Source of the DNA: Candidatus Auribacterota bacterium | GTDB taxonomy: Bacteria > Auribacterota > Tritonobacteria > UBA1439 | Length of the DNA stretch: 64,000 nt | Reading direction: 5' to 3' | NCBI GenBank assembly: GCA_026392015.1 | Contig: JAPLCW010000174.1 | Coordinates: 1 to 64,000 of the forward strand | Shown here: positions 6,869-64,000 of the stretch, piece by piece | Numbering within the stretch: the stretch's first letter is position 1 | How the letters are laid out: each line of letters begins with the position of its first letter | Translations under genes and position numbers: made by a program | Notes under the pieces: model-generated | Seen by the model: the letters and a program-made list of their open reading frames with translations, nothing else | Databases searched by the model: none | Told to the model about the DNA's origin: nothing

Positions 6869-7276
6869 TTCATCAACCGGAACAGAAATCATACACGCTT
6901 TGCCCCCGATCGCCGGTGACCTGAACGCGCCGCCGGGCGGGAAGAAGCATTCGGGAAAGGAGAAATATAAATTGTGACAGACCGGCTCGATATGCATGGA
7001 AAGTCGGGCAGGGCAGGGAACATCTGTCTTTGTGCACCTGCGGAAAGAAAGAAAAATAAGGATAAGGCAAGGCCTCGGTCTCAGGGAGGCATGTCACTCC
7101 CGCCCCTGTATAACTGAGAATGTGCGAAAAAATAAGATTCCTGAACTTGGTTATTTGCATATCTATTGTGGGGGCTTGATTTATCAAGCCCTTTAGGGAG
7201 GGTCGGATGAATCCGACCCCTACAGCAATGCGCAAAACTATTTTTTTTCCACACCTTCTGAGGGGATACAGGATAA

Positions 7277-7987: not shown

Positions 7988-8125
7988 CTTGAGCCAGAAT
8001 TCAGAAGACAGAATACAGAATTCAGGAGACAGGAGATAAACGTTTCCTTGAAATGCCGCTATTCTTAATTCTGGATTCTGTATTCTGTCTTTTCCATTCT
8101 GGCTCCTGACTTCTGACTACCTGAG
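7988..8125. repeat. MITE-like palindromic element, copy A
   Basis: Arms are made of degenerate CAGAATN / CAGGAGN heptamers around a core AGGAGATAAACGTTTCCTTGAAATG. The same element occurs inverted at ~34216-34372 and ~40478-40650. Confidence 0.8.
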
Positions 8126-8241
8126 TAGTTACCTTGCTTCTATTGAAAGCCCGGGATACTCGGGTGAAAAAGCTATTGCGTGAGGTGATGCTTCTGCTAC
8201 AATGAAACCGCATGAAAGAAGCGGGCAGGAGGGCATGAATA

Positions 8242-13446: not shown

Positions 13447-14818
13447 GACAGCATCCCACATCATGCGATGTTTAACCATGATGCCAAAATGCAGTAGAAA
13501 AGCCAATTTGGGGGCATTTCCCCAGCTTTTGATCTCTGGAACCGAACCGGTAGTATCTTGGACAGCATTTTGAGGCCTCAAAATGAATCATGCAGAGATT
13601 TGTCTTAAACGGCCTATTTCTCTCACAATACGCGCATGACAATCACCAAACTAATTTATTTTGGACAGATGTGTGGCAATAGGATAAAATAAAGCCGGAG
13701 GCGAGCCAAAGGAGAGAGATATGAGATATGCGCAGATTACCAGCAGATGTACCTATTGCCACCTGCGTTGGAGAATTTTGTACCGCGAGATCATCCAGCG
13801 ATGTTGCTACGGGAGTTTGTGGATTCTCTGGACTTACTTGGATTGGGTTTTAAGGCCCGGGAAGCAGAGGAGGGACGTCCATATTATGGAGAAAGTTTAT
13901 TGCTGAAGGTATGGTTATATGGATACTTCAACGGGATACGAAGTAGTCGGAAACTTGAAAAAGAGAACAAGGAGAATATAGGGCTTATCTGGTTAACGGG
14001 GATGCATTATCCAGATCATAACACACTGTGGCGGTTTTACCAGAGGAACCAGAAGGCGCTCAAGAGTCTGTTTAAAGAAGCGGTACAAATAGCAGTGAAG
14101 GGTGGGTTAGTAAGGATGGTAGTCAACGCGGTAGACGGGACAAAGATCATGGCAGATGTGTCACAGAGGAGCGGGATACATCGAAAGAAGTTGGAAGAGA
14201 TATTACGGAGGATAGACGAGTCAGTGGATGAAGTATGTAGCGAGATAGAGAGAGCGGAAGAAGATGAAGCCGGAGAGGAATATGGGTTGCCTCTGGAGCT
14301 TCAGGAGAGGAAGAAGCTCCGGGCATTCATTGAGGGAGAACTAAAGGAGCTAAAAGAGAGAGGGACATCTAATCTGAGCAAGACGGACAAGGATGCTCGA
14401 ATGATGAAGGGGAATGAGTGGATACGGGCTATCTGGGGGACTCCCGCAAAATATGTTGCAGTATCAATGCGGAATGCTCCTGTCCATACCTGCCCATGGC
14501 TCGATGCCTCAAACGCCAGCAGCATCGCGCCAAACATTTTACTCAACATACCACAATAACCGCTTTTTTTCATATCGCGCATTCTCCCCATGTGCCATTA
14601 CAGTGTCTGAAAATATGACAGCTCGTGTTCAGCCGCGTCCGTTCCCGCCTCTGCGGAATGTTCTCCTATTTAATCATGAGCGTCTCCCCGGCGATCGAGC
14701 CCATCACTTTCCCCTTGTTGTCCTGGAGAGCATTTTCTCATGGGGCTTGACCGATTAGCCTCGCTTCAACCCTCACAGATAAATAGACTAGCAAAAACCG
14801 TACCAAACAGTATGGATC
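13447..14818. mobile_element. Degraded IS5/IS1182-family insertion sequence (putative)
   Basis: TTTTGGACAG motif at 13447 and 13657, and its reverse complement CTGTCCAAAA at 14809, bracket a truncated transposase ORF. Boundaries are uncertain. Confidence 0.35.
13747..14559 (+). pseudogene. IS5/IS1182-family transposase, C-terminally truncated
   Basis: N-terminal InsH/DUF772-like region (LLLKVWLYGYFNGIRSSRKLEKE). It reads through DKDARMMKGNE and then leaves the family frame. No DDE catalytic region is present. Confidence 0.6.
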
Positions 14819-15038: not shown

Positions 15039-16154
15039 TCAACGCCGAGAGAGGAGCATTCTCAGGAGCACGGAAGGGCGAAGGAGGAGCAGGGTGCGCG
15101 TGTTACACTCGTGCGTACAGACGCAGCGCTTCTCACGGCGCAACGCGACGAATTCCCTCGCCCGGGCGCCGGCCAGCAGTTTTTTAAGGTCAAACCCGAA
15201 ATCGCGGACATTCCCGAGAGAGCGATTGAACATCAGCTCGCACGGGAACACTTCTCCATCCTCGGAGAGGACTACCTCACGCTCCCCGGCCAGGCAGGGG
15301 GCGATGAACTTCCCCTCCCTCCAGACACGGGCGATGTAGCGAGTGCGGGCTTTGTTCATCCTGTCGCGCACGCGGCGCTTCAGGGCACGGGCGGAGTGGA
15401 GGGCCCTCTCGCCCTTCCCGCGATAGAGCGTGTCCAGTTTTTCGCAGAGCGCCGTGTAGATCTCCGGCGTCACATCAGGGGGCCGCGCCGCGGGGCCGCC
15501 GCCTCGCCAGAGGTTGAGTGTGTGCGAATCGGGATGAATCTCCTTGAACACAAAGTCGATGAGCCGGTCCAGTTCCCCCTGGTTCTCGCGCATGAGCGTT
15601 GTGATGACACCCACGTACAGATTCCCATACCTGCGCTGAAGATCCTGAGCGCCTGCGAGCGTGCGCAGCGCCCGCGCGTGGATGCCCGAGACGCCGCGGA
15701 GGCTGTCGTGGAGCTCGCCGAAGCCGTCCAGTGAGACCGAGAGACTGCACGAGAGATTTGGCGAGATCGCGCAGATGCGCTCTACCGCGCCGAGGATCTC
15801 CTCCGTCCTCAGACCGTTCGTCGGAATGGAGATATTACCGAACGATGTCTCCCTGAAATAGGCCTCCACGACCTCCGGCAGATCCCTCCGCAAGAACGGC
15901 TCACCGCCGCTCAGGAGGAGAAAAGGGAGCTTGCCGATGGAATGGGCGATCTTACGGATTTCATCCAGGGTGAGCTCGCGGGTGCGCCTGTTTACCGTAT
16001 AGAAGCAATGAGCGCAGCGCGCATCGCACGCAGCGGTGACAAAGTGCGTGAGCTGGAAGAGACCGCGGCCCGGAAGAAACGCCTTTCCAATCATGCCGAT
16101 GGCTCCCGTGAGCGGGTTAACAGACTTAAAATCCTTTTTCACATCCCTCCTCAC
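15039..16154 (-). CDS. Radical SAM protein with C-terminal Cys-rich (SPASM/twitch-like) region
   Basis: CDARCAHC (CxxxCxxC) cluster near the N-terminus, and a GGEPFL SAM-binding motif. C-terminal cysteines (PCLAGE, FPCELM, CVCTHEC). Confidence 0.75.
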   Translation of the reverse strand: MRRDVKKDFKSVNPLTGAIGMIGKAFLPGRGLFQLTHFVTAACDARCAHCFYTVNRRTRELTLDEIRKIAHSIGKLPFLLLSGGEPFLRRDLPEVVEAYFRETSFGNISIPTNGLRTEEILGAVERICAISPNLSCSLSVSLDGFGELHDSLRGVSGIHARALRTLAGAQDLQRRYGNLYVGVITTLMRENQGELDRLIDFVFKEIHPDSHTLNLWRGGGPAARPPDVTPEIYTALCEKLDTLYRGKGERALHSARALKRRVRDRMNKARTRYIARVWREGKFIAPCLAGEREVVLSEDGEVFPCELMFNRSLGNVRDFGFDLKKLLAGARAREFVALRREKRCVCTHECNTRTLLLLRPSVLLRMLLSRR

Positions 16155-16803
16155 CTCCCCCTTCGCGGGGGGAGGGAATTATATTTATTTTGCCACACAA
16201 AATGCAGGAGAAGCATTAACCTGATCTATTCACCAGCTTTTAATGTTTTAACCGCGGATTAAGCGGATTACGCTGATTTGCATTGTTTAATCCGCCCAAT
16301 CCGCGAAATCTGCGGTTTCATATGTTTGGCCGTTAAAATTGCTCTTTTATTCGTCTGCTGAATAATCCAGGCTAAGCTGCTCTATTCATCAACCCGAGAT
16401 TAGCATTATCCGAATATTCGCAACATATTGCATTGCAGGGGATTGATCCTTCGGCAAGCTCAGGACAAGTTTTATCAAGCCCGTTCTCAACCCGGGTTCG
16501 ATAAATCAAACCCCTACATTACGCAGATGAATAGTCCAAGCTAAACCTTATCCCCATCCTTCCTCGCCAAAGACGAGCGAGCGTGAGGCTTGTCCGCCTT
16601 GGGCGGAGGAAGGGTCAAGGCGGGGTGTTTGTTGCGAAGTATGCCATTCTTGCACTTCGACTACGCTCAGTGCAAATTCGAGCAGAAATCCAGATTCCAT
16701 ACAGGATCCCCGCCTGCCTGCGCGAAGCCGCTTCGGCATAGGCAGGCTTCCTCGGGGATGACAATTGAACTGAACACCACCACAAGACTGACGTATTACT
16801 ACA

Positions 16804-17723: not shown

Positions 17724-17857
17724 TATTCTGTATTCTGTATTCTGTATTCTGTATTCTGTATTCTGTATTCTGTATTCTGTATTCTGTATTCTGTATTCTG
17801 TATTCTGTATTCTGTATTCTGTATTCTGTATTCTGTATTCTGTATTCTGTATTCTGT
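17724..17857. repeat. Perfect heptanucleotide tandem tract (TATTCTG)n, ~19 copies
   Basis: Read directly in the sequence. It lies in the intergenic region between the divergent GT2 (minus) and GT39-like (plus) genes. Confidence 0.9.
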
Positions 17858-17870
17858 ATACGCCCTGCCA

Positions 17871-19427
17871 TTGAGAGTTAGATCAGTTGTTGCGATCCTC
17901 CTCCTCGCATTCGGTCTGAGGCTTATTTTCGTATTCTTTCCCGCGGAGCTGAAACCGTTCTCCGACATGCAGGAGTACCATGAGAAGGCATGCATGATCC
18001 TCGATACGGGCAGCTACGGGCCTTCGTCCCGGCCCCCGCTCTATCCGGTCTTTCTCGCGTCCGTATATCGCATCTTCGGTATCCATTCCTTCGCTGTGAG
18101 GCTAATCCAGGCGCTGATGGGCACCGCCGTGTGCCTCTTCACATATTTAATCGCGCTCCGGTTGTGGGGGGAGCGCGCTGCGTGGATGAGCGGGCTCCTT
18201 GTCGCCTGCTACCCAAGCCTCGTCGTGTACACTGGCCTCCTCATGTCGGAGAATCTTTTCATTTTCCTGCTCATGGCCTCGCTCTGGATCCTCCTCTGTC
18301 CGGGGCGGAGGGGAGCTTTTGCCTGCGTCGCCGCAGGCATACTCCTCGGCGTTGCCTGCCTGACCAGATCAATTCTCATCGGATTTATCCCGATCGCGGC
18401 GCTCTGGCTGTGGCGGAAACGCAGCGGGAGAGAGGGGATGGTATGCCTTCTCGGAGCGCTCCTTGCCATTGCCCCCTGGACAATAAGAAACTATCGCTAC
18501 TATCAGCGGTTCATCCCGGTAGATCTCTACGGCGGCTATAACTTCCTTATCGGAAATACCCCGTACGCCACAGGGCGGCAGGAGCTCGGGACGCTGCGAA
18601 CACTCGAGGCCGAATATTGGAAGAACTGGTATATAACACCCGAGAAAAAAGGAGAGGGCGCGCCTCCGGCTAATGAATGGATTATGATCATAGATCCGGA
18701 CGGTTCCGCGCTGGGTTACCGGGAGGGGATTAAGTTCATAGCAGCCCATCCATTGAAATTCCTGATCCTTGGCATGAGAAAAATGGGTAACCTGTACGAT
18801 CTCGAGATCAGAGACCTCTCATGGGCGTATTCCAAAAACTACTTCGGGGAGGTGCCCCGGCTGATTCTCATTCCGGTGGCGGCGGCAATCATTGTCGCCT
18901 TTCCATTGCTCGCGATCCTTGCCCTCTGCGGCATACTCTGCAACGGAAAGGAAACATATGATGTAAGGGGACAGTCTCAGAGTAGGAAAAACAACCCCCT
19001 CCTCGCCCTCCCCTCGGCAAGCTCCCTTCGACTTCGCTCAGGATCTTCGACAGGACAAGCTCCCCTTCGCAGGGGGAGGGGATATGATTCGAGCCCCTCA
19101 GAAACTGAACAATTGTCACATAATAACGGCGGCGCATGGGCGCTGCTCATCTTTACCCTGCTCTATTTTTCCGCCGCGTGCTTCCTCACCTTCGGCGAAA
19201 GCAGGTTCCACCTCCCCCTCGTACCGGTCCTGGCACTGTTCGCCGGCGCTCTCGCGACATGCGCACCGCACCCCCTGTCCTCTGAGCCGGTCCGGCTGAA
19301 GAGATTGCTTCTTGTCTTACTGCTCGGCCTCCTCCTTATAGACTGGGGACTGAGCCTTATGGAGAATCGGCAGCGTCTCGGCATCGTGCTCGCCCCGGGA
19401 GGCAATCTCACGGAGATCAGCTATTGA
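17871..19427 (+). CDS. Polytopic membrane glycosyltransferase, GT39/PMT_2 (ArnT-like) family
   Basis: Multiple TM helices with the family pattern (PLYPVFLASVYRIFG...LIQALMGTAVCLFTYLIALRLWG). Start tentatively at the in-frame TTG at 17871, just downstream of the repeat tract. An in-frame repeat-derived insert sits at ~18985-19095. Confidence 0.6.
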   Translation: MRVRSVVAILLLAFGLRLIFVFFPAELKPFSDMQEYHEKACMILDTGSYGPSSRPPLYPVFLASVYRIFGIHSFAVRLIQALMGTAVCLFTYLIALRLWGERAAWMSGLLVACYPSLVVYTGLLMSENLFIFLLMASLWILLCPGRRGAFACVAAGILLGVACLTRSILIGFIPIAALWLWRKRSGREGMVCLLGALLAIAPWTIRNYRYYQRFIPVDLYGGYNFLIGNTPYATGRQELGTLRTLEAEYWKNWYITPEKKGEGAPPANEWIMIIDPDGSALGYREGIKFIAAHPLKFLILGMRKMGNLYDLEIRDLSWAYSKNYFGEVPRLILIPVAAAIIVAFPLLAILALCGILCNGKETYDVRGQSQSRKNNPLLALPSASSLRLRSGSSTGQAPLRRGRGYDSSPSETEQLSHNNGGAWALLIFTLLYFSAACFLTFGESRFHLPLVPVLALFAGALATCAPHPLSSEPVRLKRLLLVLLLGLLLIDWGLSLMENRQRLGIVLAPGGNLTEISY

Positions 19428-19560
19428 CCTCTCCGCCGACCAGAAACTAATGCATTAGTTACAGGCGGATGTGATTCTTTTTTCTCGCAGGGGGGCCTTA
19501 ACCTGGTCTATTCATCAACTCGAGATCAGGGCGATCTCCATATCTGATAACACATTGAAT

Positions 19561-19696
19561 TGTAGGGGCTTGATCCTTCGGCAAGGTCCCTTCGACTGAG
19601 TTTATACTGAGTGTAGCCGAAGTGCTCAGGGTCTTCGACAGGACAAGTTTTATCAAGCCCGTTTTTAACGCGGGTTCGATGAATCGAACCCCTACA
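19561..19696. repeat. Palindromic element family TGTAGGGG...CCCCTACA (representative copy)
   Basis: TGTAGGGGCTTGATCC...GGACAAGTTTTATCAAGCCC...GGGTTCGATGAATCGAACCCCTACA. Other copies at ~7166-7226, 16435-16519, 30238-30311 and 30714-30793, and a fragment inside the CDS at ~18985-19095. Confidence 0.8.
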
Positions 19697-20124
19697 ATAG
19701 GGAGATGAATAAAAGAGCTATTTTAACAGCCCACCATATGTAACCGCAGATTACGCGCCTGCCTGCCGGCAGGGATTGGGCGGATTACACAATGCGAATC
19801 CGCGTAATCCGCGGTTAGAACATTAGGTTCATGTCCAAAAAAGTTGCCCATTCATACGAGGAGAGTAGTCATCCCCGCGAAAGCGGGGATCCAGAAATGC
19901 AGCTTTCTAAGCTGGATTCCTGCTTCGCATAATAGAGGGATTACGCGAGGTGATGTCAGCGGGGTGCCGGTGCAAAAAAGTATAAAATCATACAATCGCA
20001 TATTTCCAGTTGACTTCCGGAAGCGGATAGCGTATCTTGAGCGGGTTTGCTGGGCATATATCTGCCGAGTCAACTCGTTCAGGCGCCGGCGCGTTGTTAC
20101 GGTGCCAGCGAAAGGGGAGACATT

Positions 20125-20757
20125 ATGGTACAGTTGAGATCGTACGTCTTCATCGACAGTCTCCAGCCGCAGCTCGCCTCCTTCGTCGCCTCCGCAGCCA
20201 AGGGCTTCATGCCGGTTGCGGGAATGGCGTCGCTCTACGTGGAGGTGGCTCCCGGCATGGAGATCATCCGCGCGCTCGATGTGGCGCTCAAGGCGACCTC
20301 CTGCCGACCTGCGGTACAGGTAGTGGAGAGGGCCTATGGCGTCCTCGAGGTGCACTCAGAGGATAAGGGGCAGGTCATCAACGCAGGCAGGGCGATTCTC
20401 GAACATCTCGGCCTGAAGGAGGAGGACCGACTCAAGCCGAAGGTAGTCGCCACGCAGATCATCCGGCGGATCAGTCCCTACCAGTCGCAGCTCATCAACA
20501 AGGGGCGCGACGGCTCGATGCTCCTCGGAGAGCAGACGCTTTACATAATGGAAACAGATCCGGCAGCTTACGTAACGATTGCGGCCAACGAGGCGGAGAA
20601 AGCCTCGCTTGTGACGCTCATCGAAGTGCGGCCGGTCGGCCGTTTTGGCCGTCTCTACCTCGGCGGTGAGGAGAGGGACATCATGGTGGGAAGCGAGGCA
20701 GCCCTGAAGGCAATCGAGGCCATCACGGGCAAGGAACACGGCGGTAAAGGCGAATAA
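20125..20757 (+). CDS. BMC-domain-like shell protein, possibly permuted/tandem (EutL/PduB-like); assignment tentative
   Basis: RBS AAAGGGGAGA precedes the ATG. Segments GMASLYVEVAPGMEIIRALDVALKAT...VQVVERAYGVLEVHSED and LVTLIEVRPVGRFGRLYLGGEERDIMVGSEAALKAIEAI resemble BMC-fold strands. It is first gene of the microcompartment operon. Confidence 0.4.
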   Translation: MVQLRSYVFIDSLQPQLASFVASAAKGFMPVAGMASLYVEVAPGMEIIRALDVALKATSCRPAVQVVERAYGVLEVHSEDKGQVINAGRAILEHLGLKEEDRLKPKVVATQIIRRISPYQSQLINKGRDGSMLLGEQTLYIMETDPAAYVTIAANEAEKASLVTLIEVRPVGRFGRLYLGGEERDIMVGSEAALKAIEAITGKEHGGKGE

Positions 20758-20826
20758 CCACAGTGTAAGATTTAAAGTGTAAAGTGTAAGGTTGAAAAGG
20801 AAAGCGTTAGAGAAAGGGGGTAGGCG

Positions 20827-21117
20827 ATGTCAGAGGCACTGGGAATGATCGAAACGAGAGGGTTTGCAGCCATGGTTGAGGCATCGGATGCCATGGTCAA
20901 GGCCGCAAAGGTCGAGCTGGTGAGCTACGAGAAGATCGGCGGCGGTTACGTCACCGCTATCGTCCGCGGCGATGTGGCGGCCGTGCGCGCGGCGGTTGAA
21001 GCAGGGGCGCGTGGCGCCGAGAAGGTGGGAGAGCTAGTATCCGTACACGTCATACCGAGACCGCACGTCAATGTCGATGCGGTGCTGCCGCTCGGAAGGC
21101 CCACCGGGAAGGAATGA
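20827..21117 (+). CDS. BMC-H hexameric shell protein (PduA/EutM/CcmK-like)
   Basis: Canonical [29 protein letters not shown]...[13 protein letters not shown]...VHVIPRPH. Confidence 0.9.
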
Positions 21118-21222
21118 CAAATACCAAGTGACAAATGACAGAACATATTTGTTTTGTCATTTAGATTTTGTCATTTGTCATTCATTTAGTGTCTATTGTG
21201 GTTGGTGGACAAGGAGGATTCG

Positions 21223-21522
21223 ATGCTCCTGGGGAAAGTGACGGGAACCCTCGTCTCCACACAGAAGGATGAGAAACTCAGAGGTCTCAAGTTCTTCGTT
21301 GTGGAGAAACTCGATATGCAGGGGAAGCCGACGGGTACGTTCGTTATCGCGGCTGATTCTGTGGGGGCGGGCGTGGGAGAGGTTGTGATATACGTCTCCG
21401 GAAGTTCCGCCCGCTACACCGCCTCTACGGAGGGGAAGCCGGCGGACGCGACCATCATCGGGATCGTCGACACGTGGGACCTCAACGGGAAGGCGCAGTA
21501 CCAAAAATCAGAGGAAAGGTAA
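21223..21522 (+). CDS. BMC-P pentameric vertex protein (EutN/PduN/CcmL family)
   Basis: MLLGKVTGTLVSTQKDEKLRGLKFFVV...GAGVGEVVIYVSGSSAR. AGGAGG RBS lies 8 nt upstream of the ATG at 21223. Confidence 0.85.
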   Translation: MLLGKVTGTLVSTQKDEKLRGLKFFVVEKLDMQGKPTGTFVIAADSVGAGVGEVVIYVSGSSARYTASTEGKPADATIIGIVDTWDLNGKAQYQKSEER

Positions 21523-21653
21523 TGCCTCAGCCACAGGGTGATCATACCCCCCACCCTGACCCTCCCCTCAAAGGGGGGAGGGGAATAAGGTTTGATTGCA
21601 TTCCGAGACTGAAGCATTGCGAGGAACGAGCCTGACGGCTCATGGAGTAGCGC

Positions 21654-23107: not shown

Positions 23108-23460
23108 CCACTGGGGACACTGAAGCAACATCAATAGATTCAAGGTGGCTATATTTTTTAGATTCCCTTGCATTTTGTGTGCGTGCACTGCATTCTCCTC
23201 CCCCCTTGAGGGGGAGGAAGAAGGTGGGGGGTATTGCAAAGGCAGATATGCTACCCATTACATTGGATGGAGTTACAATGAGTATCCGTTATCCATTCCT
23301 CACCCCCACCCTTACCCTCCCCCTTCGGAGGGGGGGGATAAGAAATTTGCCCACACAAAGTGGAAGAGAACCCTTTTTAAATCAGCGTAATCCGCGGTTC
23401 GAACCGTTATCGTAACGAAGTTAGTCTCTGTTTCAGTGCGCTCAGTGTCCTCAGTGGTTA
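23108..23460. repeat. MITE-like element with terminal inverted repeats, inside the BMC operon
   Basis: AACCACTGGGGACACTGAAGC at the left end and its reverse complement GCGCTCAGTGTCCTCAGTGGTTA at the right end. The interior holds GC-rich UUCG-loop hairpins and a CCGCGGATT motif. Confidence 0.6.
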
Positions 23461-24880: not shown

Positions 24881-24953
24881 GGATTACAGCGCGTAACTGC
24901 GGATTGGATGGACTACCGTAAAGAATCCGCCTAATCCGCGCAATCCGCGGTTA
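24881..24953. repeat. Palindromic element family TTAACCGCGGATTACGC (representative copy)
   Basis: Units of GGATTN3GCG with inverted symmetry and ends like TTAACCGCGGATT / AATCCGCGGTTAA. Further copies at ~16250-16320, 19741-19818, 23385-23412, 25828-25860, 40425-40455, 41685-41730, 41975-42009 and 63855-63985. Confidence 0.8.
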
Positions 24954-24978
24954 AAACATTAAAGGTGTCTGAACAGTC

Positions 24979-25826: not shown

Positions 25827-25882
25827 TTTTCAATCCGCGCAATCCGCGGTTAAGACTTTAATATTTCGTCTTTTATCCAATT

Positions 25883-30146: not shown

Positions 30147-31383
30147 CCGCTCATTATACTCATTCCTTTCGCACTACAGACTCCCCCTCAAAATCGGGCA
30201 GTGGTTCAATTCGACCAAGCATATAGTTTCTCTACGATGTAGGGGCGTGATGAACTTGTCCTGAGCGAAGTCGAAGGATCACGCCCGGGTTCGATAAATC
30301 GAACCCCTACAAATCAACGCTCCCCAGAATGACCCACTACCCATAATCGCTTATGTCTGGCAAGCAAAGATGGTAGGCCTGAATGGCGGATAACAAATCA
30401 AAACGTTGACCTGGTGTAATGCGTCAGTTACGCTGGGGGCTGCTGACTTTGTCCGGACATGCATATTTTTATTCTAACCACGGATAAACAATGTGGGAGC
30501 GGCTTCCAGCCGCGATAATCGGGGCGAGGACGCACCTCCCACAGTATGCTCTTATCTTGATAGCTTGATAGCTCGATAGCTAAATTGCTCTCCTCCCCCC
30601 TCCCACAATTGAACTACGTGAGACAATCCGTGTTCATCCGTAATTTATATACTCCTGTCAAACTGCCCCATGACTATCTGGTGGATGACATTTAATAAGG
30701 AGTATTTCTCGTCGTAGGGGCTTAATTTATCACGCCCGCCAAACGGATCGGATAAAACTTGTCCTGAGCCTGCCGAAGGATCCAACCCCTACATTATTCG
30801 CCGTTTCGAGTGTAGAATGGTCCAGAAGAAAGCAGAAAACACCAAGAATTGTATACAAACTGCATACAAAGTATACATACTTGACACAATAGAATGTATA
30901 CTGAGTATGCAAGGCCATTTCTCGCTAGCTAATATTTCGCAAAATACAGTTTAATCCTATAGATAACTACCTAGCATTAAAGGAGTTGCATTTGATAAAA
31001 TAAATATCACCAAAACCTACAAATTGGCATGAAATTTGCTACCTTCCTAGGGTATGAGAGTGATACCCACTTATTCAGAAGCTGACTTGGGCAAAAGAAC
31101 TCCAATGCTCCCGATAATTCAAAGGGCGTCATATAGCGGGCATAAGGGTTTGAGTACAGTAGTGGGTTGCGTATTGACTGATGCTGATAACTGTTGTATT
31201 ACATTTAATAAGCGCCATGCAATATGTAACTGCAATCCAGCCTTGGCGACAGAAGCCATCCATCAACAGCACTCGAGGGATTGCCTCGTCCTCCCGCACC
31301 TTGCAATAGCATAATAGCGCAGCTCATCTTTTATCCTGCGCATACATTGTAATCGGGACTTGTCTCAGGAAAGGAAGAAGCAA

Positions 31384-34176: not shown

Positions 34177-34215
34177 CTTCCGGTATTCTGCAGTGATATA
34201 TCTGGTAACCACTCA

Positions 34216-34372
34216 GATAGTCAGGATGCAGAAGCCAGGAGCCAGAATGGAAAAGCAAGAATCCAGAATACAGAATTAAGAATAACGGCATTTCAAGGAA
34301 ACGTTTATCTCCTGTCTCCTGAATTCTGACTCCTGAATTCTGACTCCTGAATTCTGGCTTCTAAATTCTTGC
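34216..34372. repeat. MITE-like palindromic element, copy B (inverted relative to copy A)
   Basis: Same core GGAAACGTTTATCTCCT with CTGAATTCTGACTCCTG heptamer arms. Confidence 0.8.
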
Positions 34373-34469
34373 TCCTCGCAGTCACGACATCGCCCTATTT
34401 ATTGAGTGAAAATTGTGGCTTCTGCGCTTATAATCTCTAGATATCAACTTTTTAGGGCGGTGATATACT

Positions 34470-40428: not shown

Positions 40429-40477
40429 CCGCGGATTGGGCGGATGAAAACATTAAATCTTATTAACTGCTCGGGTG

Positions 40478-40650
40478 GTCAGAAGACAGAATCCAGGAGT
40501 CAGAATCCAGAATGGAAAAGCAAGAATACAGAATCCGGAATACAGAATTAAGAATAACGACATTTCAAGGAAACGTTTATCTCCTGTCTCCTGAATTCTG
40601 TATTCTGTCTTCTGAATTCTGGCTCCTGACTCCTGAATTCTGACTCCTGA
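40478..40650. repeat. MITE-like palindromic element, copy C
   Basis: Same core and heptamer arms as copies A and B. Confidence 0.8.
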
Positions 40651-40675
40651 GCAGTTACAAATCTTAAAGGATAAT

Positions 40676-41656: not shown

Positions 41657-42059
41657 GCCCCCGCCCGATCCGGTTATATCAACTATTAATGTTTTTAACC
41701 GCGGATTATGCTGATTACGCGGATTCTTGTTTGGGCTCTTGCAGGATTTTTGTGAATAAGTAGATGGGAGGACGCTACATAACATCCTATTCGCAATTAA
41801 GATATTGCTGAGCCGCCATCCCGTATGCCCTCTCCCCTCCGAAGGGGAGAGGCATGGTGAGGGGTGAATCCGCATGGACCACCTTCACACCCCCACCCTC
41901 GCCCTCCCCCTTCGGAGGGGGAGGGGTATGGCCCACGTCCTTTCTTCACAAAAATCTGGCTTGAGCCCTTGTTTGTAATCCGCCCAATCCGCGAAATCCG
42001 CGGTTTCATGCCTTGATCTGCTGAAATTACCTATGTATATTTCTGAATAATAACCCGGA

Positions 42060-63709: not shown

Positions 63710-64000
63710 TGCTCGTCTCCTCCTTATGATATCCTCTTATATGAACACGCGGCAGCCGTGTCAATGACATTCTGGGCCGGGGCGAACAAATATCATTCAT
63801 GAAAAACAAATCGCCACTTTATCCGGTTTATCCGATGGTTATATTGTTCTATTCAACCGCGGATTACGCAGATGTAAAAACTGCCCGAGGTTTAGGGCGG
63901 AAAGAATAGCGACATTCCTCGAAGCTTCCGCTTTACGCTATCAACCGCAGTTCAATCCGCCCAATCCGCGTAATCTGCGGTTAAATCCTTTAGCCATCGG

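Follow-up and report, generated by a model that had tools for sequence, protein, structure and literature searches.

A repeat-derived segment translated in-frame within a membrane glycosyltransferase was found in a stretch of 64,000 nucleotides from Candidatus Auribacterota bacterium (GenBank assembly GCA_026392015.1, contig JAPLCW010000174.1, positions 1 to 64,000; this whole stretch is referred to below as the window). The host gene (17871, a TTG start, to 19427 on the forward strand; 518 amino acids) encodes a PMT_2/GT39-type GT-C membrane glycosyltransferase and carries a lineage-specific in-frame insertion of 54 codons (residues 368 to 421; approximately 18972 to 19133, forward strand). 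This insertion was very probably that of a selfish or neutral repeat, tolerated by the host protein. The original prediction had placed in this gene a repeat insert of ~35 amino acids, translated in-frame in a loop between transmembrane (TM) blocks. The string that it quoted, 86 nt at 18996 to 19081 of the forward strand, was indeed read as ...PLLALPSASSLRLRSGSSTGQAPLRRGRGYDS... within the open reading frame (ORF) ending at 19427, and modelling likewise placed it in such a loop. Its size had been underestimated, as the extra sequence amounts to approximately 50 to 54 amino acids, and only the central ~90 nt are recognisably repeat-derived.

Filled and empty sites in the host gene

When the best 21 homologues were aligned (alignment A1), ~54 extra residues appeared only in the NCBI proteins P0001 and P0002, whereas the 19 other homologues lacked them. 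The extra residues fell between the helix ending in ...LALCGIL and the helix starting with AWALL..., where the insert-free homologues (445 to 462 amino acids) presented a loop of 8 to 13 residues. A homologous loop, which in distant orthologues would have marked the segment as ancestral protein sequence, was found in none of these 19, and the insert was accordingly lineage-specific. The boundaries, taken from the gap placement in the alignment, are soft by a few codons, and the terminal NNGG is perhaps ancestral (P0004 reads ...TGNNGGAW). Two of the 19 are encoded by syntenic orthologues with an empty site, L002 (P0003) and L130 (P0004, from another Ca. Aureabacteria assembly, GCA_026391995.1), both with the gene order radical-SAM - GT2 <-> GT39 -> bacterial microcompartment (BMC) operon. 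The second filled site, that of P0002 (84 to 86% identical to P0001), lies on contig L001, which comes from an independent metagenome of the Joint Genome Institute (JGI 3300022650). Outside the insert, L001 differed from the window by 12.7% of nucleotides; the insertion was at the same codon and in the same frame, and the non-repeat flanks of the insert (QSQ.RKN... and DSSPSETE...) were common to both. Since the insert is shared by these two and lacking in the rest, the insertion is older than the split between the lineages of the window and L001. No target-site duplication was found around the insert, the 7-mer ATATGAT on either side being at chance level and not kept in L001.

The host protein was 100% identical to P0001, annotated as 'glycosyltransferase family 39 protein [Candidatus Aureabacteria bacterium]' and 518 amino acids long. 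The Pfam domain PMT_2 (PF13231) was detected in it with E = 3e-13 and 50.7 bits, against a cut-off of 26.1. An AlphaFold2 model built from 21 homologues reached a predicted local distance difference test (pLDDT) of 80.7 and a predicted template modelling score (pTM) of 0.83; its top Foldseek matches in the PDB were ArnT (5ezm), STT3 subunits of oligosaccharyltransferase and Pmt4, and the predicted fold is GT-C. Membership in the PMT_2/GT39-like GT-C enzymes was borne out by the Pfam domain, by these fold matches and by D32, which is nearly invariant within the FSDM motif of the first external loop.

Residues 361 to 416 of the model, covering the insert, had pLDDT values below 50 and no secondary structure, and formed a disordered loop between helices 330-357 and 420-439. 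ArnT has two juxtamembrane helices in its first external loop. In a topology model obtained by counting predicted helices, in which residues 31 to 46 and 57 to 69 were taken as these juxtamembrane helices, the outer side comprised D32 (FSDM), M125-S126-E127, D218/G222/N224/N229 and E443-S-R-F-H447, and the cytoplasmic side comprised short, positively charged loops together with the insert (9 K+R vs. 5 D+E). On the grounds of helix parity, of the positive-inside rule and of where the invariant motifs cluster, the insert thus falls, in this model, in a cytoplasmic loop between the eighth and ninth TM helices, opposite all the invariant, presumably catalytic, motifs. This would answer the question, left by the original prediction, of whether the insert is cytoplasmic or periplasmic, and would put it in a structurally permissive region, disordered and on the side opposite those motifs. 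The peptide itself is rich in Ser, Arg, Gly and Pro, carries a net positive charge and is disordered by prediction. Among 1.84 billion representative proteins its only relatives were the orthologue and one spurious tandem-repeat ORF, and the idea of a recurrent protein module was rejected on this basis.

The large external loop of the host protein held a second variable insertion, the ITPEKKGEGAPPANEWIMII region (window 18640 to 18700, residues ~257 to 270). It was shared by P0002, P0004 and the P0010 group and missing in many other homologues; residues 257 to 270 had low pLDDT and no repeat similarity.

Repeat make-up of the inserted segment

The repeat-derived core of ~90 nt (18994 to 19083) was a composite of two families dispersed in the same genome; the original prediction had already matched the segment to intergenic families. 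Within the window, 19025-19043 matched 30277-30259 at 19/19 positions, 19036-19059 matched 19624-19647 at 23/24, and 19/20 matches were obtained both for 19014-19033 with 19578-19597 and for 19062-19081 with 41907-41926. The chance expectation for such matches was at most 0.05: pattern searches with a 17-mer and an 18-mer retrieved 2 sites each, vs. 0.03 and 0.05 expected in shuffled sequences. Further matches at 15923-15937 and 15638-15651 were treated as chance, as they lie inside a radical-SAM gene, in conserved protein motifs.

The core starts with the C-rich 5' arm and extension of a GC-hairpin family, of the CACCCCCACCCTCGCCCTCCCC type (18994 to 19013, forward strand; 2 mismatches in 19 against 41891-41909), and the 5' arm of the orthologous in-gene element of L001 matched window positions 41888-41909 at 21/22. 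It is followed in the hairpin loop by a TTCG-rich inner module of 46 nt, TCGGCAAGCTCCCTTCGACTTCGCTCAGGATCTTCGACAGGACAAG (19014 to 19059, forward strand), with partial matches at 19578-19647 and 30259-30277 and with copies on independent metagenome contigs (44/46 in L125 and L129, 43/46 in L126), where it occupies the loop of a GTAG-tagged repetitive extragenic palindromic (REP) stem. Contained in this module is a sub-module of 27 nt or nine codons, CCTTCGACTTCGCTCAGGATCTTCGAC (19025 to 19051, forward strand), which was delimited by the codon alignment with L001 and holds a 19-mer (19025-19043) recurring across phyla. The core ends with the 3' half of the GC hairpin, CTCCCC-TTCGCA-GGGGGAGGGG (19060 to 19083, forward strand; 19/20 against 41907-41926), and 30 nt of this 3' arm (GGACAAG...GGGGA) were identical between the window and L001. 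The two arms are joined by an inverted repeat of 8 nt (19006-19013/19073-19080, 100% complementary), to which a local CTCCCC/GGGGAG stem is added.

The non-repeat flanks of the insert, compared for traces of a longer element, had no significant similarity to those of other GC hairpins. The 3' flank resembled the right end of the REP doublets marginally (13/15), a level equalled by ~1-2% of shuffles, uncorrected for multiple tests. A search of 18800-19800 against Rfam at E <= 1 gave no match, and neither an internal terminator or promoter nor a terminator-like tail was found at the insert. Hairpin stability was rejected as a sign of function, because DNA and RNA folds were no better than dinucleotide shuffles. 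Five of the six reading frames of the composite were free of stops, vs. one or two of six for REP doublets; these stop-free frames, together with an added length that is a multiple of three, indicated that the composite is read through.

Selection, rival explanations and course of events

Outside the insert, the 378 codons compared between the window and L001 differed at 33, 19 and 92 sites for codon positions 1, 2 and 3, respectively (71 synonymous and 49 non-synonymous changes); in the 97 codons located downstream of the insert, a subset of the former, the corresponding values were 7, 4 and 12 (13 synonymous and 8 non-synonymous). Judged from this substitution pattern, the host gene is under purifying selection on both sides of the insert. 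The 45 aligned codons inside the insert presented 5, 5 and 6 differences (5 synonymous and 9 non-synonymous), and in this lack of codon-position bias the two sequences compared give no sign of protein-level constraint on the insert. The L001 insert also lacked the nine codons LRLRSGSST that correspond to the 27-nt sub-module in the window. Among other copies of the module, L125, L126 and, with its centre lengthened, the copy of 19561-19698 contained the sub-module, which was absent from those at 16436 and 30720. The variants of the module differed from one another by indels with short direct repeats (CTC, AGGA and CTTCGAC) at their ends, a pattern compatible with slippage, gene conversion and insertion alike.

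The segment had originally been thought to be either a mobile repeat domesticated as a loop insertion or a sign that the gene was being disrupted. A repeat-derived, lineage-specific insertion in a loop was upheld, whereas domestication and disruption were not. An incipient pseudogene, broken by the repeat and now decaying, would suit the presence of a member of an otherwise extragenic family within coding sequence, but is very unlikely, given that the frame stays open through the invariant ESRFH (E443-S-R-F-H447) to the conserved C-terminus, that an excess of third-position and synonymous changes is seen on either side of the insert, and that a relative diverged by 12.7% is in the same in-frame state. 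The same relative leaves hardly any credence to an assembly artefact. The source is a metagenome-assembled genome (MAG) and the segment is repetitive, so a dispersed repeat might have been misassembled into the gene; the independent JGI contig, however, has substitutions of its own, while its insertion occupies the same codon and its non-repeat flanks are those of the window, and a chimeric join would rarely keep both frame and flanks. It is also exceedingly improbable that the loop is old coding sequence from which the intergenic repeats were derived, or which the other homologues lost. Part of the loop may be ancestral, as the terminal NNGG shared with P0004 suggests, but the 19 homologues with a loop of 8 to 13 amino acids belong to several lineages and include the closest syntenic ones, unrelated contigs also carry the repeat families, many phyla have the 19-mer core, and the insert has no coding-type substitution pattern.

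Domestication, in which the peptide or an mRNA or DNA hairpin would be functional (e.g., as a cytoplasmic docking or regulatory loop, or as a structure for translation or mRNA stability), is distinctly improbable. It would account for a frame kept in two lineages ~12.7% apart, even across the 27-nt indel, for a positive peptide charge as expected in a cytoplasmic loop, and for an insert that diverged less than third positions outside it, with 30 identical nt in the 3' arm. Selection on the conserved downstream region alone nevertheless explains the upkeep of the frame, and gene conversion with other copies explains the conserved 3' arm equally well. In addition, changes in the insert were spread evenly over codon positions (5/5/6) with more non-synonymous than synonymous ones (9 vs. 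5), the peptide, disordered by prediction, has the orthologue as its only genuine relative among the 1.84 billion proteins searched, and the nucleic acid has an unexceptional fold, no terminator-like tail and no Rfam match.

Several points weigh against the insertion of a selfish or neutral repeat, the explanation that we favour. The divergence of the insert (16/135, 11.9%) was lower than that of third positions outside it (92/378, 24%), and this, together with the identical 30 nt of the 3' arm, could reflect constraint at the nucleotide level or homogenisation by gene conversion and not pure neutrality. The insert hairpin (18985-19095) was no more stable than dinucleotide shuffles (z = +0.8 for DNA and +0.4 for RNA). 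At 18972-18993 and 19084-19133, some 70 nt in all, the insert matched no repeat of the window, which leaves the original inserted unit and its boundaries undefined. The exact composite of GC hairpin and module was found nowhere else, including a scan of metagenome contigs, and hence no donor copy was identified. As the insert has only two carrier lineages, the 27-nt change may equally have been a gain or a loss, and the topology was derived from predicted helices and not from coordinates or measurement.

Under the explanation of a selfish or neutral repeat, the course of events is as follows. A unit of ~150-160 nt entered the short loop linking TM helices eight and nine before the window and L001 lineages separated, as the observed presence and absence of the insert show. 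Candidate routes of entry are hairpin-directed single-strand transposition of the kind performed by REP elements and REP-associated tyrosine transposases (RAYT), or else an exchange with other copies by gene conversion or template switching. The recognisable core is composed of a GC hairpin, TTCG-looped and extended at its 5' side by a C-rich stretch, and of the 46-nt module in its loop that is otherwise seen in the loops of REP doublets. The composite, stop-free in five of six frames and adding a multiple of three in length, is translated into a peptide predicted to be disordered. The cytoplasmic loop would be lengthened and the catalytic side spared, and the enzyme presumably keeps working, in line with the substitution pattern of the gene. 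Later, either one lineage acquired the 27-nt sub-module or the other lost it, again without leaving the frame, the same polymorphism being seen among intergenic copies. The in-frame state would be a remnant of selection and not a property of the element.

Repeat families, known systems and wider context

Copies in the 64 kb numbered four others for the GC-hairpin family and four to five others for the module. The GC-hairpin family, with a consensus of approximately CACCCCCACCCTCGCCCTCCCC-CTTCGG-AGGGGGAGGGG, is GC-rich, with TTCG in the loop and a stretch rich in C extending the 5' side. Its intergenic copy at 41888 to 41927 (forward strand; family D9) was the closest relative of the in-gene arms, and further copies were located at 21546-21584, 23301-23338 and 16139-16176, the last lying at the very 5' margin of a maximal ORF, for which the true start is in doubt. 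Three of these four copies were in no stop-free stretch of at least 150 codons, and none of the four was gene-internal.

The second family, built as TGTAGGGG...CCCCTACA, had the anatomy of a GTAG-tagged REP doublet (REPIN-like), with a GTAG tag, stems of 9 bp, loops of 2 nt and two inverted units. An intergenic doublet with the module in its first loop lies ~480 nt downstream of the insert (19561 to 19698, forward strand). The module likewise occupied the first loop of the elements at 16436-16520 and, on the reverse strand, at 30238-30312 and 30720-30794; the element at 7166-7226 was module-free. The GTAG tag was absent from the ends of the in-gene hairpin; a GTAG occurs 8 nt upstream (18982-18985), with no significant flank similarity. 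A block of ~186 nt (19515-19700), which holds the doublet at 19561-19698, was missing from the orthologous intergenic region of L001, and the family has therefore turned over since the window and L001 split. A unit placed in the loop of a larger palindrome was seen in three places: the REP loop and the GC-hairpin loop each hold the module, and arms of the type TATTCA... and ...GAATA enclose the REP block.

Another dispersed family, with AATCCGCG(N)AATCCGCGGTT and TAACCGCGGATTA motifs, was noted at 16237-16326, 19741-19826, 23380-23409, 24924-24962, 25832-25861, 41684-41715, 41977-42015 and 63842-63992; it often adjoins GC hairpins and REP doublets, with which it makes up larger intergenic mosaics. 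Upstream of the host gene, a perfect tandem array of TATTCTG (19.4 units, 17724-17859) filled most of the divergent intergenic region of 176 nt between the GT2 gene, whose true start is at ~17694 by alignment with the L002 orthologue, and the GT39 start at 17871. The orthologous regions of L002 and L130 lacked this array, and related heptamer-rich blocks were found at 8003-8131, 34204-34376 and 40476-40658. The array could be a slipped-strand, phase-variable promoter region for the two glycosyltransferases.

The exact 19-mer CCTTCGACTTCGCTCAGGA (window 19025-19043, and 30259-30277 on the reverse strand) was present in at least 120 loci from ~15 bacterial phyla among species-representative genomes, and the loci listed (L005-L124) include Pseudomonadota, Bacteroidota, Acidobacteriota, Verrucomicrobiota, Planctomycetota, Chloroflexota, Bacillota, Cyanobacteriota, Patescibacteria and others. 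It also occurred in 46 stretches of viral contigs (L131-L176). Approximately 4 matches would be expected by chance in the 596 Gb searched on both strands, assuming equal base frequencies. Its contexts were of the types gat-[19-mer]-tgac, [19-mer]-caggc and cgt-[19-mer]-tgaggg, often as inverted pairs 35 to 55 nt apart, and flanking inverted repeats of at least 8 nt accompanied 15% of the copies vs. 3.7% in a permuted control, a modest, approximately fourfold difference. A common closing stem was rejected, as ungapped pair counts over 131 copies were barely above those of shuffles, and the family is heterogeneous. Rfam gave no family over the motif in 18 cross-phylum loci, and a literature search for the 16- to 19-mers gave no match among the papers searched. 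In Flavobacterium sp. 270 (L028, 1965-2071), a Flavo-1 RNA (RF01705, 81 bits) ended 7 nt upstream of the 19-mer copy.

A further reading, on the unlikely side, takes the TTCG-rich modules of 20 to 46 nt as tiny units, mobile or templated, that target the loops of hairpins already in place, one of them in coding sequence. It is suggested by the same module being found in the loops of two unrelated stem families (GC hairpin and GTAG REP), by the 27-nt sub-module being present or absent both in the gene, between the window and L001, and among intergenic copies, and by the exact 19-mer core recurring across ~15 phyla and viral contigs. If true, it would imply an undescribed cross-phylum mechanism or a host factor acting on the motif.

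Read-through of repeats inside genes is already known, and the insert, by analogy, works like a further case of it. The classical example is that of the Rickettsia palindromic elements (RPE), selfish DNA that is read through in protein genes (Ogata et al. 2000, Science 290:347; PMC3184786, PMC5896051). They share with the insert, if this is taken as palindromic, the character of a palindromic dispersed repeat of ~100-150 nt, placed in-frame in a gene at a site where the fold tolerates it, adding a peptide that orthologues lack; the insert, too, belongs to a multi-copy family, has filled and empty sites, is openly read through with a conserved downstream ORF and lies in a region predicted to be permissive. 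In contrast, one gene is affected here in 64 kb, as against many in Rickettsia, the insert is a nested composite of two families, and the host is a free-living-type MAG of the Planctomycetes-Verrucomicrobia-Chlamydiae (PVC) group and not an obligate intracellular alphaproteobacterium. The likeness concerns the mode of working and not sequence homology, which is not expected, and we do not class the insert as an RPE.

Alignment to shorter homologues has revealed, in several species, REPs of the GTAG/CGTC type that lie wholly inside ORFs (Di Nocera et al. 2013, PMC3733652), GTAG repeats have been reported in the PVC superphylum (PMC3733652), and REPINs have been described by Bertels and Rainey (2011, PMC3116915). 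The TGTAGGGG...CCCCTACA elements of the window match these in tag, stems, loops and inverted-doublet layout, and the insert shares their inner module. Its stem, however, is of the GC-hairpin family and bears no clear GTAG or CGTC tag; for want of this tag the insert was not classed as a GTAG REP. No RAYT gene was seen in the window, although no scan aimed at one was made. The small dispersed repeats (SDR) of Nostoc and other cyanobacteria reportedly measure ~20-27 nt, nest in each other, in hairpins and in mini-transposons, and occur beside tandem heptamer arrays. Similar traits here are the 20- to 46-nt modules in hairpin loops, the nested 27-nt sub-module and the (TATTCTG)n arrays, although the phylum is another one, the mobility of the modules is deduced from presence and absence only, and the likeness drawn here is one of architecture. 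Among miniature inverted-repeat transposable elements (MITE), QMITE1/2 of Coxiella produce in-frame insertions and C-terminal extensions of ORFs (PMC5896051), and other bacterial MITEs (Correia, BOX/RUP/SPRITE, Nezha) have been reviewed (PMC3184786, PMC10969869). Like them, the insert is a non-autonomous repeat of a sort occasionally found in-frame in an ORF, adding amino acids, but it is much smaller than most MITEs and, as neither definable terminal inverted repeats nor a target-site duplication are visible, it was not classed as one.

In the neighbourhood of the glycosyltransferase gene, a BMC operon starts directly downstream (window 20047-21522 onward) and is syntenic in relatives (L002, 6550-11338); its members are a CsoS1D-like shell protein, BMC-H, EutN/CcmL, an aldehyde dehydrogenase and an RnfC-like protein. 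The only Rfam match in the window at gathering thresholds was a cobalamin riboswitch (RF00174, 59495-59684, reverse strand, 82.8 bits). An ORF at 13747-14559 (forward strand), perhaps truncated, has an N-terminal region that, from its translation, we take to be IS5/IS1182-type transposase-like; overlapping short ORFs follow it.

In annotation, no domain should be assigned to the extra 54 amino acids, and the 'novel' sequence in metagenomic protein sets is inflated by repeat-derived peptides like this one. The insert provides a clean case, with filled and empty sites, of a repeat translated in an essential-looking membrane enzyme from a little-studied candidate phylum of the PVC group, and it displays an in-frame change, that of the 27-nt module, continuing after insertion. 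Only two parts could lead to something new, the architecture of nested modules and the core recurring across phyla; the wider point, if true, would be that tiny modules nest in hairpin loops, with a core common to bacterial phyla and viruses.

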